A stretch of DNA of 64,000 nt from NCBI RefSeq assembly GCF_002854065.1, contig NZ_CP024147.1. One strand, given 5' to 3'. Below the pieces are notes generated by a model. The model was given only the letters and a program-made list of their open reading frames with translations, did no database searches and was not told where the DNA came from. A program made the translations under genes and the position numbers. This DNA comes from Escherichia coli (lineage in GTDB: Bacteria > Pseudomonadota > Gammaproteobacteria > Enterobacterales > Enterobacteriaceae). The stretch's first letter is position 1. Every line of letters begins with the position of its first letter. Below are positions 16,998 through 23,013 of this stretch, in pieces.

Positions 16998-17451
16998 CAG
17001 TTTCACTAGCAGATTGCCAGTTCTAGTAGCCAATTAAGAGAGGAGTGGATTGTTCTTTGGGTATTCGCAAACCCAGCAACGGTAAAATCAGGACTGACCC
17101 AAAAATTCAACGAGAATCCACCCCTTTAAATCTTTGATCCCTTCCCGGAAGCAGTATACGGCATATCTGAGTTAATCGTTTCTATTGGAGCTTCAGGGAA
17201 GCGACTCTTAATAGAAATCTGTTAATACTGTCCAAAACTGATTCCCTTTATCCCGAGCTGAACCGTAACAAAACCATCTCTCTTTGAGATCTCACATACT
17301 CAACGAACATAAGCCATTGCTGCTACATACAATTTTACGAAGCATATCACCTTAGTTGATCATGAAATCCATCCTGAATACAGATTGATTTTTATACTAT
17401 ATTAAGTGAGATATGATCTTCTTTAGAGTTGAGCTAAAAGGAGTCGAGGCG

Positions 17452-18756
17452 ATGGCCAGGATAATCCAATCAGCCGGTATCAATCATGGTGCAACAGCAA
17501 AAATAATTTCCGATTCAATAGATTATAACTCCGGCATACATATTGCAGGATTACCAACGCTATATAATAAAGATGGTCATTTTGTAGAAATTGTAAATTT
17601 GTGGTTTTTGGATTTGATAACCGTTAAGAGGCTAGAGGATATTAGTTCTTCAGCCAGAGCAATTCTTCGTTACTGGTCTTTTCTAGAACGAGAAGAGCTT
17701 ACATGGAGTCATTTTCCTCCAGTGAAACGCCTGAAACCCACATACCTTTTCCGTAGCAACGACTTGTTAAAAGCAGTTAAAGAGGGAAGACTGGCGTACT
17801 CAACTGCAAATACTTATATGGGACATTTAGTTCAGTTTTACATCTGGGCAATTGAAAATCATCATCTTGTCATATCAAGTGAAAAAGAAGCTCCCTTTAC
17901 TATTGAGTTTGTTAAGCGTAACAATAGAGGCCTGCTGGCACATCTTCGCCCAATGATCAGTGTGCAAACGAGCGATTTACGTATCCGCGTTCCTAAAGTT
18001 ACAAACGCCGAGATCCAGTCATTAACTCCTTTAACTCAAGATCATCTTTCCTTACTATCATTCAACTTAAGCCATCAATCTGTTGAATTTATGTTGATGA
18101 CTTTACTGGCCTGTAAAAGTGGTTTGAGACTTCGTGAAGCATGTAGCCTCACAATTGAGGCTTTATCTCAAGCTTTGCCCGCCAACGAATTAAAGCTACG
18201 CTATATGATCAACATTTGGCCCCACAATGGTGTTGATACAAAATTTAGAAAAAAAAGAAATATTGAAGTCCCCTGGCCTCTACTAAACGCATTACAACGC
18301 TACTCGCTGTCAGAAAGAAGGCAAAAAAGACTTTCAAAATTACAGACAAAAATAGCCATTCCCTCAATTTCGGAAAAGATTAAAGAATCCCACAATAAAG
18401 CATCTCGATTCGAACCTCTTTTTATCAGTCAGCAAGGAAATTGTATCCAGCCCGAAGTTCTAAATGCAAGGTGGGTTGCATTTAGAAATGAACTTGCCAA
18501 AAAAGAACCTAGTTTTCGTTATCGTTTCCACGACCTCCGATGTACCTATGCCACATACAGACTTCAAGACCTGCTGGATAGCAATCTCTCAGAAGGGGAT
18601 GCCCTAGACTGTCTTATGGGATGGATGGGACACAATAACGAAAGAACCACATTTAAATATATCCGCTACTTGAAGAAAAACGAGATGCTCAAGTGTGCTT
18701 TTTCGCTATTAGACTCAGTGATGGATAATGCAATAAGGGATAATTTAAATGACTGA
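17452..18756 (+). CDS. Tyrosine recombinase A (phage-integrase family)
   Basis: The catalytic motifs are KSGLRLREACSL (Arg I), RFHDLRCTYATY (His-x-x-Arg) and WMGHNNERTTFKYIRY (His...Tyr). AAGGAG lies 9 nt before the ATG at 17452; the ORF is open from 17413. Confidence 0.85.
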   Translation: MARIIQSAGINHGATAKIISDSIDYNSGIHIAGLPTLYNKDGHFVEIVNLWFLDLITVKRLEDISSSARAILRYWSFLEREELTWSHFPPVKRLKPTYLFRSNDLLKAVKEGRLAYSTANTYMGHLVQFYIWAIENHHLVISSEKEAPFTIEFVKRNNRGLLAHLRPMISVQTSDLRIRVPKVTNAEIQSLTPLTQDHLSLLSFNLSHQSVEFMLMTLLACKSGLRLREACSLTIEALSQALPANELKLRYMINIWPHNGVDTKFRKKRNIEVPWPLLNALQRYSLSERRQKRLSKLQTKIAIPSISEKIKESHNKASRFEPLFISQQGNCIQPEVLNARWVAFRNELAKKEPSFRYRFHDLRCTYATYRLQDLLDSNLSEGDALDCLMGWMGHNNERTTFKYIRYLKKNEMLKCAFSLLDSVMDNAIRDNLND

Positions 18757-20472
18757 TAAAATCCCTCAATCCAGACTCGGCCATGAAATACTACTGGAGG
18801 TTACAGATGGTGGAAATCGTTCTAAAACACTAGATTTCAATCGCTACAACTATTTATACTTCCCCACTCGAAATAAAATAAATAGAGGTCACAGTACATT
18901 TCAAGATAGATCAGTCAGCGCTGAATCGTTATATGTAGCATTCAGAGATTCAGACTACTCATCAGCCACAAAATATTATCTTTTTGAATACCTCAGGCAA
19001 TATATTGTATTTTGCGACAAGTGTCACCATCCCATTTTCACTAATGAATCCGTGCAGGCCTACTGTGATCTCCTTATTTATAAAAATAAATCAGGAATTA
19101 TTTTGAATAGTACTTATACTGCTATCATTAGTGCCACAAAACGCTTATTCGTTATGCTTGACTTACCTGGGCGGTGGTTTGATGAATTACCAACCTTAGG
19201 AAAGTCACAGGCACAGCCCTATAAGGCCTATAGTGACAATGATTTAAAAAAACTACTCCCTTTACTGAGGATATTTTTCAAGCAAATTTCCAATAAGTTC
19301 CTACAAGACCCCGCTTTGTATCTTTCTCAAGGTAAGAATGAAACTGATATGTTTTTCAGGTGGAATGGTAAAATATATGCAGTATATGGTAGTGTCGGGC
19401 AACTAATGGCTTCTGCTGTATATCTACTGTCTTACTATACATGGGCAAACACAAATACATTACTTTCTCTTGAAAGACCAGACATATGTGAAAGTAATGT
19501 AAATGGAGAATGGTACCAAATGCCAGCATTTAAGCGCCGGGCATTTAGAGTCATCACTATTCAGATCGGTGCCCACGACCAGATCAACATTCCAAAGTAT
19601 TCAATGGAATTTTTCAACCAACTTCTAAAAGTCTCAAAAGCTATTTCAGTTGAAAGTAACTTACTTTTTCAGTCCGGTTCATGTAATCGCATCACCCCAT
19701 TATCAGCGGTCCACTTACAAAATTTCAACAGTTTTCTCAAAAAGAACTTTAGATTAACTGATGATAAAGGACTTAGCTATCACCTGTAATATCGAGATTT
19801 CGTGCTACTGGTAGTCAATTTACGCAATTGCATTACTCTCATACACATAGTGCATCGCTATTAGGAAATTCACCGAAAACAACTCGCAAGCATTATTCAG
19901 AAGGGAATGAATACCAAAATCAGTCAATGCTCCAGGACTCTGTCTCTGTTTTTGCAGACAAGGCGGTAAATGGCGGGAATATAGAGACGTCTAAAAAAAG
20001 AATAAAAAGTGAACTTAATGTTGAGATTTTAACATATGAAAGTATGCTTAAAATGAAATCTCCACCAATGCGACAGGCCCACGGCAGTTACTGTAAAGAT
20101 CCATTCGGGGAGCAGGCTAAAAAGTTCTTGCTACGCGCCCAACGTCACGATTTGCTTTCTACAGAAAAATTTGCTTGCTCAGATCTACTGATGTGTTTTT
20201 CCTGTCCTCATCAAGTTGTGATAGCTGAACCTACTGATATTTGGTGTTTGCTGAGTTTTAAAGAATGCATAGAAGAGAGTATTTACAAGCATGTCAATCA
20301 CACTCATTTCCATAATAACTATGACTCTGTGTTGTCGGCAATTGAAAAAATTTTAATGAGTATTGATAAAAAAATACTTTCAAGTGCAACTCAAAAATTT
20401 CTCGATGAGGGTCCTCACCCTTTATGGAGAGACCAGTCATTTCTATATCCATATAGCAATAAGGATACATGA
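18749..20472 (+). pseudogene. Tyrosine recombinase B, split by a frameshift near 19777-19789
   Basis: The 346-aa ORF stops at 19789. The next frame is open from 19777 and reads ...PVISRFRATGSQF...LLGNSPKTTRKHY (box II Arg and catalytic Tyr). Neither piece alone is a complete recombinase. Confidence 0.7.
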
Positions 20473-22271: not shown

Positions 22272-22565
22272 ACTCTGCATAGTTATTGTAAGAACGGATA
22301 TGATTGTGAGATGGAAGGGGTCATTAACCCAGCATTTTGTATAGATTGTAGTACAAATGGTAGTATTATTGATGGCGAACAAGCTGCCTGGTGGAAAAGC
22401 AAACATAATGCACTGATCTTATATTTGAGTGAAAACGCAGAGATATCTACTGCTGTTTATATTCACTGCCTAACACAAATTCATGCAGCTGAGAAGGTAA
22501 TGTCTGATTTTTCAATAGAATACATTCCATTTCAGCCCGAAATAGAGATCAGAACAGATGAGTAA
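22272..22565 (+). other. Same-frame continuation after the TGA of recombinase C: a Cys4 (zinc-ribbon-like) tail or a separate 84-aa gene
   Basis: The frame stays open from 22272. C-x5-C (22287-22307) lies upstream of the only ATG (22311), and C-x2-C lies downstream of it. Confidence 0.5.
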
Positions 22566-23013
22566 AAAAGACAACACACTGCTACTGCTTGAGGCAGCTC
22601 TGGACCGTATTTTACGCGGTGAATCACAGAAAATAGCACCATCCCGAAAACTCAGTGTTCGGGCGGTTGAGGTAGAATCAGGACTCGGTAATGGTAGTGC
22701 ATATTACCACACTAAAATTATCGAAAAAATCAAACAAATAAAAAACTCTTCCATAACGACAGGAAGTTTAAATCATCAACATCGAAAATGGAAACAAAAA
22801 GCACTTAAGGCTGAAAAATTAAAAAACAAATTCCGGGATGAAAACATTGCATTAAAATTATTAAATTCACAAATTGCCGCAGATCAGTATAGACAAATGA
22901 GCACTTTAAGAGATGCCTTACAACGTATATTGGAACTCGAAAAAACAATTGAAGAATTGAACATTGAACTGGTTGAGACCAGACGTAAAAACATTACTCT
23001 ATTTAAGCAATAA
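22558..23013 (+). CDS. Small coiled-coil protein (151 aa), last gene of the recombinase operon
   Basis: The start overlaps the previous frame by 8 nt. The C-terminal half is heptad-rich and charged (KWKQKALKAEKLKNKFRDENIALKLL...LELEKTIEELNIELVETRRK). Confidence 0.6.
   Translation: MSKKDNTLLLLEAALDRILRGESQKIAPSRKLSVRAVEVESGLGNGSAYYHTKIIEKIKQIKNSSITTGSLNHQHRKWKQKALKAEKLKNKFRDENIALKLLNSQIAADQYRQMSTLRDALQRILELEKTIEELNIELVETRRKNITLFKQ

Follow-up and report, generated by a model that had tools for sequence, protein, structure and literature searches.

A disabled intA-tfp-intB-srap operon as the probable mobility module of an arsenic-resistance island at gorA in Escherichia coli

The window analysed here, a stretch of 64,000 nucleotides from the Escherichia coli contig NZ_CP024147.1, contains four co-oriented genes on the plus strand. 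The first gene, intA (gene A, 17452-18756), encodes a tyrosine recombinase of 434 amino acids and looks intact; its start is the one given by the RefSeq annotation in the near-identical CUWW06, and a start at the ATG at 17413 would give 447 amino acids. The second, tfp (gene B, 18749-20472), is present in two frames, 18749-19789 and 19828-20472, and encodes 574 amino acids when intact. It is followed by intB (gene C, 20469-22565), which is divided into two pieces, 20469-22271 and 22311-22565, and encodes 698 amino acids when intact, and by srap (gene D, 22558-23013), coding for an auxiliary recombination protein of 151 amino acids, which also looks intact. The overlaps of 8, 4 and 8 nucleotides noticed in the initial annotation were confirmed (A/B, 18749-18756; B/C, 20469-20472; C/D, 22558-22565), with an ATG as start and a regular stop codon in every case. 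The order intA-tfp-intB-srap is repeated in 51 loci from other genomes, none of which shows another order, and gene absences among these loci are confined to those ending inside the operon or a few hundred bases away. This recurrence shows that the four-gene arrangement is not due to chance. The four genes are a single co-oriented, translationally coupled recombination module. Promoter and terminator scans of the region revealed promoter-like sites in numbers no higher than expected from shuffled sequences, and only the host AgrB sRNA was matched in an Rfam scan of the region.

The recombinase signature previously reported for gene A is complete (R226, K264, H360, R363, H394 and Y403) and, but for one exception at most, invariant in 21 homologues. 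IntA matches the Pfam family Phage_integrase (E 3.2e-8), and the exact protein was found on 127 contigs. The signature of gene C is likewise complete (R337, K368, H482, R485, H509 and Y518) and invariant in 20 of 20 homologues; further invariant residues of IntB are H599, H603, C606, C612, C623 and C626. When IntA and IntB were compared to PDB sequences by phmmer, no recombinase was among the matches; the AF2 model of IntB gave Cre, XerA and Tre as its top PDB matches. The interruption of gene C is real in the window, where a TGA at 22269-22271 (codon 601) stands in place of the GGA of E. coli strain 100416. With GGA put back, the gene encodes 698 amino acids, so that the TGA costs IntB its last 98 residues together with the invariant His/Cys cluster. 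An intact IntB form of 697 amino acids was found on 465 contigs. The exact srap product, WP_032288336.1, is entered among the Srap orthologues in Additional file 3 of PMC10214605, and srap is syntenic at every locus extending beyond intB. The coiled coil attributed to gene D is doubtful, its heptad score being reached by 69 of 500 shuffled sequences.

For gene B, the frameshift described earlier was found again, with the first frame closing at 19789 and the second open from 19777. In comparison to strain 100416, one T is missing after position 19776 (AGC TTA is read as AGC TA), and putting it back restores a single open reading frame of 574 amino acids; in the window, tfp is reduced to fragments of 346 and at most 214-231 amino acids. 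A programmed frameshift was ruled out, since the site lies inside one continuous frame in all 35 aligned homologues. The unusual motifs ANTNT, SRFR and LGN are present as reported, but they are not a sign of degeneration, because they are invariant across the Tfp family: N234, R350-F351-R352 and Y383 are invariant in 35 Tfp homologues which are only 35-88% identical. In Tfp, N234 stands for Arg I, and both histidines are absent. Judged by the sequence, the frameshift is the only damage in gene B. Tfp homologues (n=200) are mostly 560-590 amino acids long, and the repaired gene B product is a full-length homologue of that of SE-PagHa2018B tfp (P0097 = WP_121636909.1, E 5.5e-119). Pfam searches with IntB, Tfp and Srap gave nothing significant, with a sub-threshold SAM-like match on Tfp only. 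The top 38 PDB matches to the AF2 model of an 87%-identical Tfp homologue were all tyrosine recombinases, and the Tfp and IntB models resemble Cre, Xer and lambda Int. With its invariant Lys, Arg II and Tyr, Tfp may be more than a passive DNA binder; it may, for example, act as a partner limiting cleavage to one strand.

Downstream of srap, there is a non-coding right arm (23014-23691) without conserved open reading frames. It is 99.9-100% identical among the copies of E. coli and Salmonella, and the other loci compared do not have it. A hairpin resembling a terminator was located by a terminator scan at 23658-23680, immediately within the right terminus. This terminus, C' (23692-23713, plus strand; ACAGTTAAATCGTGTATGGGTA), is adjoined by a 6-bp spacer, CTGCGT (23714-23719, plus strand), which was identified by comparison of the attL, attR and attB junctions, and then by the right half of attB (23720-23732, plus strand), a displaced copy of the last 13 nucleotides of gorA (GACCATGCGTTAA). 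The E. coli core homology begins at 23717. The C' sequence also closes the element in Salmonella and is similar to the published C' of SE-EasCA1043 (ACTGTAACAGTGTGGTAGTA) and SE-PmiBC1123 (...GCGTGGGAGTA). These published C' sequences were not found in the sequences of the relatives, whose right ends lie beyond the compared flanks. In the initial annotation no convincing terminal repeats had been found in the flanks; C' is located inside the very flank that had been searched. The partner terminus C (TACCATGAGAGGTTAGTGTA) adjoins gorA at about 2.37 kb ahead of the window. An inverted-repeat search across 16900-23800 gave chance-level pairs only; the true partner terminus is outside the window.

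At the left junction, attL reads ...GAGTTCGT followed by TACCATGAGAGGTTAGTGTA, and at the right junction attR reads ...CGTGTATGGGTA followed by CTGCGT and GACCATGCGTTAA. The empty site used in the junction comparison is ...GAGTTCGTGACAATGCGTTAA, and that of E. coli STEC435 is ...GAGTTCGTGACAATGCGTTAAATG. The left flank of the element in Salmonella is GAGTTTGT, and the ends of the element are identical there. Between C and its counterpart in SE-EasCA1043 there are 2 mismatches in 20 positions, and an attB at the 3' end of gorA with a near-identical C has been published for both SE-EasCA1043 and SE-PmiBC1123. Thus, imperfectly inverted C and C' termini (13-19 bp) with 6-bp spacers are present at a specific attB, as in SEs. 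Following the model in PMC10214605, the spacer CTGCGT would be the SE 'footprint' carried from the previous donor site. In CUWW06 the island measures 26,084 bp, and its insertion point falls within the last codons of gorA. The arsenic-resistance island in its full 26 kb constitutes the mobile unit, and the module serves all of it; of the two possibilities considered originally, a mobility module of the island or of a sub-element, only the first one holds.

The window starts inside an IS2 element, the 3' part of which (1-509, plus strand, with an open reading frame at 129-509) interrupts a VspR-like gene. The window aligns to CUWW06 from position 3001 of the latter, where 2281-3509 is annotated as an IS3-like IS2 transposase. 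The interrupted VspR-like gene (520-1063, minus strand) was recognized by Pfam VspR_N/VspR_C matches in relatives, and in a tblastn search the intact 189-amino-acid VspR-like protein of strain 100416 matched CUWW06 4063-3521. It is part of the left-end (C-end) module of helicase, VspR and HTH genes, of which the helicase, together with the C terminus, lies about 2.4 kb ahead of window position 1. The HTH_3/XRE-type regulator of this module (1162-1473, plus strand; Pfam HTH_3, E 1.4e-10) is kept at 85-93% in the relatives L004-L011, and the exact protein is present in 1060 blocks of the indexed collection. Between this module and intA, the cargo extends from 1862 to 16954, as delimited by the CUWW06 annotation, open reading frames and Pfam matches. 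It begins with an SMC/AAA_13-like ATPase (1862-4474), which is followed by a glutathione-synthetase-like gene, arsR-arsD-arsA-arsB-arsC, and GNAT, TauE and wHTH genes; further on there are a second arsA-arsD pair, a sigma-70 gene, arsH, arsR and the arsP permease (15803-16954). A tie between the missing native arsRB and the element was considered and rejected, since island-free E. coli have the same dinQ-arsC arrangement.

Taken together, the locus is most probably (with a probability of about 0.9) a decayed SE (strand-biased circularizing integrative element) with the operon intA-tfp-intB-srap, the mobile unit of which is the whole arsenic island at gorA. In SEs, the gene order is an active recombinase, a protein with an inactive fold, a large active recombinase and a small protein (PMC10214605), and the order found here is intA (RHRY), tfp (incomplete set), a large intB (RHRY) and srap, with Tfp and Srap orthologous to those of named SEs. 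The suggestion of an undescribed or distinct family is therefore not tenable, since the operon belongs to the SE family and the locus is already in a published catalogue: WP_050438664.1, a C-terminal Tfp fragment, and WP_032288336.1, Srap, are listed under E. coli NZ_CP024147.1 in the tfp/srap synteny table of PMC10214605. The locus is not among the 37 published SEs with identified termini.

Copies with an intact core are present at gorA in Salmonella, where intact Tfp was found on 891 contigs, as well as in a part of E. coli; L012, L076 and L077 are among the intact carriers. The Salmonella junction of the C end with gorA (L065 and others) matches the element, as does L012, which extends from a core operon with intact genes to C' and ends at the gorA remnant; these C-end and C'-end parts were read in different assemblies. 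A search of the literature for an arsenic island already named at this site in Salmonella yielded nothing relevant. One further locus, L071 (CP172506.1), has the C end attached to another flank, adjacent to traU.

In the island, C and intA are about 19.8 kb apart and only 0.7 kb follows srap, so that, contrary to the description of SEs, the core operon does not lie beside attL at the left (C) end. This raises the alternative that the operon and its 700-bp tail (about 6.3 kb, 17.4-23.7 kb) are a separate cargo-less SE, lying beside an unrelated arsenic island or SE remnant or nested at its end, and that the trio would not move the island. The smallest published SE has a size of 6,353 bp and no cargo, the conserved sequence of the C end is located just 90-200 bp upstream of intA in about 25 distant SE loci, and the G+C content of the core region (0.388) is below that of the whole element (0.45). 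However, a nested or tandem 6.3-kb SE was rejected because no site resembling C or C' with fewer than 9 mismatches in 20 positions turned up in a scan upstream of intA: no C-like site exists between arsP and intA, the best match within 16901-17500 having 9 mismatches in 20, and the gorA junction is the only place with the conserved C-end sequence of 56 nt. At the second insertion site, in L071, the new flank joins exactly at the C end preceding the helicase. By their own published coordinates, the gorA-site elements SE-EasCA1043 and SE-PmiBC1123 also have 1.7-2.5 kb between C and intA. The same layout of C, helicase, VspR, HTH, variable cargo and intA, with entirely different cargo, was found in relatives with 56-87% identical Tfp. 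In L004, L011 and L018, C and intA are 4.8-7.7 kb apart. A separate small SE is therefore improbable.

For the island as one SE, these distances mean that the location of the core at the C end is a loose feature within the family, and that the placement of nearly all cargo between C and intA is an extreme form of a layout present in published members. It is conceivable, though so far a tentative view, that an Enterobacterales lineage of SEs loads its cargo between C and intA, in a swappable slot after the conserved helicase-VspR-HTH module, thereby parting attL from the intA promoter. The authors describing SEs (PMC10214605) have proposed that it is essential for these two to be contiguous. 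If the abundant intact copies in Salmonella and E. coli are still able to circularize, the operon need not be contiguous with attL, and the lineage would then, in Salmonella, be an active, previously unrecognised vehicle of arsenic-resistance and anti-phage genes.

The frameshift and the stop codon are inherited mutations, since the exact broken products are found on 97-150 contigs (346 amino acids on 123, 181 on 130, 599 on 97 and 84 on 150) and in six separate assemblies. That both lesions are assembly or sequencing errors in a truly intact operon, an idea to which the intact copies of strain 100416 and Salmonella, differing at these two positions only, and the loss of one T out of a TT pair lend some appeal, is highly unlikely in view of these contig counts from several sources, of the at least six independent assemblies and of CUWW06, which has both lesions although five substitutions and a single-base indel, six differences in all, set it apart from the window elsewhere within 8.5 kb. 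In SEs, knockouts showed that intA, intB, srap and an intact operon are required (PMC10214605). The inactivation suspected initially is borne out by the frameshift in tfp and the stop codon in intB, and the truncated IntB is predicted from conservation to be inactive. The copy in the window is presumably unable to move on its own, because tfp is frameshifted and IntB is without its conserved Cys/His C-terminal domain, while its ends, intA and srap look intact.

By analogy to other SEs studied experimentally, IntA and IntB would act in an intact copy as the active tyrosine recombinases, with the catalytically incomplete Tfp and the small Srap as partners. Recombination between attL and attR would involve one strand only, and replication would then yield a nicked double-stranded circle carrying the 6 bp of the left flank, with the donor copy staying in place and no empty donor site being formed. 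The circle would be inserted at a preferred attB, leaving the 6-bp footprint beside C'.

The result mainly improves annotation: what is listed in E. coli and Salmonella as "hypothetical proteins" and one "site-specific integrase" is a published mobile-element core, and the 26-kb arsenic-resistance island at gorA is an SE with definable ends, which accounts for the placement of the island and for the E. coli copy in the window being stuck. Knowledge of the SE family itself is unchanged. SE biology gains natural knock-outs, with broken tfp and intB beside intact ends, together with intact sister copies and an extreme example of cargo upstream of intA.

Among related systems, GInts (ginABCD; Bardaji et al. 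2017, PMC5385486) come close to the locus, with a four-gene co-directional operon coding for three proteins of the recombinase fold and a small protein, one member (GinC) without the first arginine, site-specific insertion and, for some members, no empty site left; as in SEs, all four genes are needed for recombination. GInts are also commoner than SEs in Escherichia (7.5% versus 0.3% of replicons). It is nevertheless very unlikely that the locus is a GInt, since there the order is ginA (RHRHY), ginB (RHRHY), ginC and ginD, with the incomplete recombinase in third place, while here it is in second place and the third gene is complete. The insertion sites and ends of GInts, which have imperfect direct repeats of 10-11 nt and an AT-rich 3' end, differ as well, while the termini and attB described here agree with published SEs, and the locus is entered in the SE table. 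The two families are separated by BLAST and MCL clustering, with Tfp and GinC, and Srap and GinD, in separate clusters and no detectable BLAST similarity between the proteins (PMC10214605).

Tn554 of Staphylococcus and Enterococcus shares target specificity and the 6-bp footprint. However, it has the three genes tnpA, tnpB and tnpC, a Firmicutes host range and no counterpart of Tfp, whereas four genes are present here, with a conserved 574-amino-acid tfp between the recombinase genes. RIT elements share three adjacent co-directional tyrosine-recombinase genes, but their proteins have 315-410 amino acids, keep the catalytic tyrosine in all members and are accompanied by 34-bp terminal inverted repeats without a fourth gene. 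The locus lacks this combination, and the earlier impression that it does not fit classical RIT is upheld, with proteins of 434, 574 and 698 amino acids, a Tfp without Arg I and both histidines, and a fourth gene. The locus is therefore not a RIT, GInt or Tn554 element, and from the GinC and GinD proteins it is set apart by the published clustering.

With published SEs (PMC10214605), the locus shares the intA-tfp-intB-srap operon with overlapping coding regions and the orthology of Tfp and Srap. It further shares a C of the TACCATGA...GTTAGTGTA type and a C' ending in ...GTGT.(T)GGTA, an attB in the last gorA codons, 6-bp spacers by the termini and a G+C content below that of the host. Unlike these SEs, a family whose core genes are described as lying on the left, it carries nearly all of its cargo (about 19.8 kb) between C and intA; it also differs by its arsenic-resistance genes, by the frameshifted tfp and truncated intB, and by termini which were left undefined in PMC10214605.

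Four co-directional genes were identified in the ORF list of the window, namely intA (gene A, 17413/17452-18756), tfp (gene B, in two pieces, 18749-19789 and 19828-20472), intB (gene C, also in two pieces, 20469-22271 and 22311-22565) and srap (gene D, 22558-23013). Their start/stop overlaps, noted in the initial annotation, were confirmed exactly as 8, 4 and 8 nt. [quoted passage not shown] The operon in the window codes for an active recombinase, an incomplete recombinase-fold protein, a large active recombinase and a small protein. This order is that of intA-tfp-intB-srap in SEs, whereas in GInts the incomplete protein is encoded by the third gene and not by the second. 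The tfp/srap synteny-block table of PMC10214605 contains, under E. coli NZ_CP024147.1, both the C-terminal fragment of the Tfp in the window (WP_050438664.1) and its Srap (WP_032288336.1), and one Tfp homologue, P0097, is WP_121636909.1, the tfp product of the published SE-PagHa2018B. In a species-representative genome collection, the four-gene synteny was kept in the 51 loci recovered, with no deviating order, genes being absent solely in loci ending inside the operon or a few hundred bases away. The catalogue listing, the identity of P0097 and the synteny thus place the locus in the SE family. The possibly distinct family proposed before is therefore one already described, with this very locus catalogued. 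The additions made here are modest: the element ends are defined, its ars cargo is located upstream of intA, and intact copies can be set against decayed ones.

Among the four genes, only gene A matched Pfam Phage_integrase. In the IntA family (21 homologues), R226, K264, H360, R363, H394 and Y403 are invariant with at most one exception, and in IntB the invariant residues are R337, K368, H482, R485, H509 and Y518. The repaired Tfp has 200 homologues, which come from Enterobacterales, Vibrio, Shewanella, Aeromonas and Pseudoalteromonas and mostly measure 560-590 aa. The motifs of gene B had been regarded as degenerate. However, the same motifs are conserved in 35 sequences of 35-88% identity, with N234 in YYTWANT, R350-F351-R352 in ISRFRATG, and Y383 nine residues past the Asn of the LLGN motif, for which most family members have LL.N; they are native to Tfp. 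The protein retains an invariant Lys (K262), Arg II (R352) and Tyr (Y383) at catalytic spacing, and lacks Arg I and both His residues. Invariant Cys/His clusters are present near the C-terminus of Tfp (C449, C477, C483, C486, H515, H520) and of IntB (H599, H603, C606, C612, C623, C626; window 22260-22565), and look like metal-binding modules. No mention of these clusters or of the retention of K262, R352 and Y383 was found in the available text of the SE papers. An AlphaFold2 model of IntB (pLDDT 75) gave Cre, XerA and Tre as best PDB matches; for a Tfp homologue of 87% identity (pLDDT 73), the top 38 PDB matches were all tyrosine recombinases, with E down to 3e-5.

Two E. coli chromosomes, those of CUWW06 and of strain 100416, share 99.9% identity with the operon region. 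Compared to strain 100416, one T is missing after 19776 in tfp, where the second frame is open from 19777, and in intB positions 22269-22271 read TGA instead of GGA. This stop at codon 601 removes the C-terminal His/Cys cluster. Repair of both lesions in silico yielded ORFs of 574 aa (B) and 698 aa (C). The truncated products recur on 97-150 contigs, and six or more separate assemblies contain them, which rules out sequencing errors and shows the lesions to be inherited mutations. In strain 100416 the operon is damaged differently, by an IS1 in the 3' end of gene B and by an IS3-family element which removed the 5' part of gene A and the cargo. Elsewhere in this chromosome (CM128593.1, 3555206-3563661), a second partial, IS1-riddled intB-srap copy has the same dinQ-arsC right flank; it arose either by segmental duplication or as an artefact of the assembly.

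On the right, the E. coli core begins again at 23717 with sequence corresponding to the last codons of gorA, the junction being ...ACAGTTAAATCGTGTATGGGTA|CTGCGT|GACCATGCGTTAA. The left junction, read in CUWW06 and strain 100416, is ...GAAGAGTTCGT|TACCATGAGAGGTTAGTGTA... and lies about 2.37 kb ahead of window position 1, and the sequence of the empty site is ...GAAGAGTTCGTGACAATGCGTTAA. The initial annotation found no convincing terminal repeat, but the terminal motif is present in the flank it considered. The same gorA attB is used by SE-EasCA1043 and SE-PmiBC1123, of which the C (left) ends are TACCATGACACGTTAGTGTA and TACTATGAGGGGTTAATGTC, and the C' (right) ends finish with ...GTGGTAGTA and ...GGGAGTA, respectively. 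In CUWW06 the element comprises 26,084 bp; its G+C is 0.45, compared to 0.49 in the rest of the window, and its insertion rebuilt the GorA C-terminus as ...EEFVTMRG*. Next to it (23786-24853), host dinQ and the AgrB sRNA locus are followed directly by arsC, without native arsR and arsB, and arsC itself runs into an IS1 (24788-25485). This arrangement is unrelated to the element, since it is shared by island-free E. coli.

In Salmonella, matches to the element were read in different assemblies: at the left, the gorA junction (L065 and others), and at the right, the stretch running from ars cargo to C', in which the core genes are intact (L012). Intact Tfp was found there on 891 contigs. In one genome (L071, CP172506.1, 4540-4575), the same C end lies on a different left flank, with the junction exactly at C (...GACTGTTGTGT|TACCATGAG), beside the F-type transfer genes traU and trbC. 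This second insertion site, read at its left junction, lies possibly in an ICE or an integrated plasmid, and supports C as the true left boundary of the unit that moves.

According to the literature, circle formation in other SEs needs each of intA, intB and srap, and an intact operon is required; recombination is strand-biased, with a nicked double-stranded circle as intermediate, the donor copy is kept, and a 6-bp fingerprint is transferred to the new attR. Here, GTTCGT next to C would be the attB-derived spacer and CTGCGT next to C' the footprint. As a speculation, the incomplete Tfp could occupy synapse positions and so restrict cleavage to one strand. With tfp frameshifted and IntB lacking its Cys/His domain, the copy in the window would be unable to move by itself. 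The initial annotation was accurate in its observation and right in reading a disabled mobility module.

The cargo at 4600-16954 contains a glutathione-synthetase-like gene and two arsenic gene sets, arsR-D-A-B-C and a divergent group of arsA-arsD, a sigma-70 gene, arsH, arsR and arsP. The island arsB-arsC region (9214-9639) is 87% identical to 24343-24768, which ends in the host arsC. The slot directly behind the HTH gene is exchanged among elements that are identical otherwise; it contains an SMC/AAA_13-like ATPase in the window (1862-4474) and, in two Salmonella genomes (L069 and L072, 8828-13755), SAVED, SMODS, Cap2-like ThiF and JAB as a type II CBASS-like set. This suggests a slot for defence-gene cargo.

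A distant SE-like four-gene module was identified on the E. coli IncC plasmid pNDM-2248 (NZ_MH844629.1; L064, 4653-10716), coding for a 421-aa integrase, a 756-aa Tfp-like protein (27% identity), a 693-aa integrase and a 150-aa protein. Tfp matches occur in 235 plasmid records, this one included; of these records, 205 are predicted conjugative and 103 come from Enterobacter. Among the matches listed, the neighbouring entries, which are plasmids from Citrobacter, Enterobacter, E. coli and Klebsiella, gave the identical weak match.

A module of ResIII helicase, VspR-like and HTH genes is located at 776-4473 of the CUWW06 locus, its part inside the window being 520-1473. It is present in many SEs, among them L004, L008-L011, L014, L016, L033, L038, L040, L050, L052, L053, L055 and L062. 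In the Enterobacterales clade it adjoins the C end and precedes intA, and in loci of Buttiauxella massiliensis, Motilimonas, Vibrio and Shewanella it is found downstream of srap. The two arrangements resemble circularly permuted versions of a single gene order. The SE host-range paper makes no mention of a helicase in its main text.

According to their description, SEs carry the core operon at the C end, and in about 25 distant loci only 90-200 bp separate the conserved 56-nt C-end sequence from intA downstream of it. In the element studied here and its relatives (Tfp 56-87% identical), the C end is followed by the helicase, VspR-like and HTH regulator genes, variable cargo and only then intA, whereas other SEs carry the helicase-VspR(-HTH) module downstream of srap. 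A small SE nested within or in tandem with the island might be considered; however, no C-like site was found upstream of intA in the window, which argues against it. In SE-EasCA1043 and SE-PmiBC1123, too, C and intA are 1.7-2.5 kb apart according to the published coordinates. The layout is therefore an extreme form of an existing pattern and not a new architecture.
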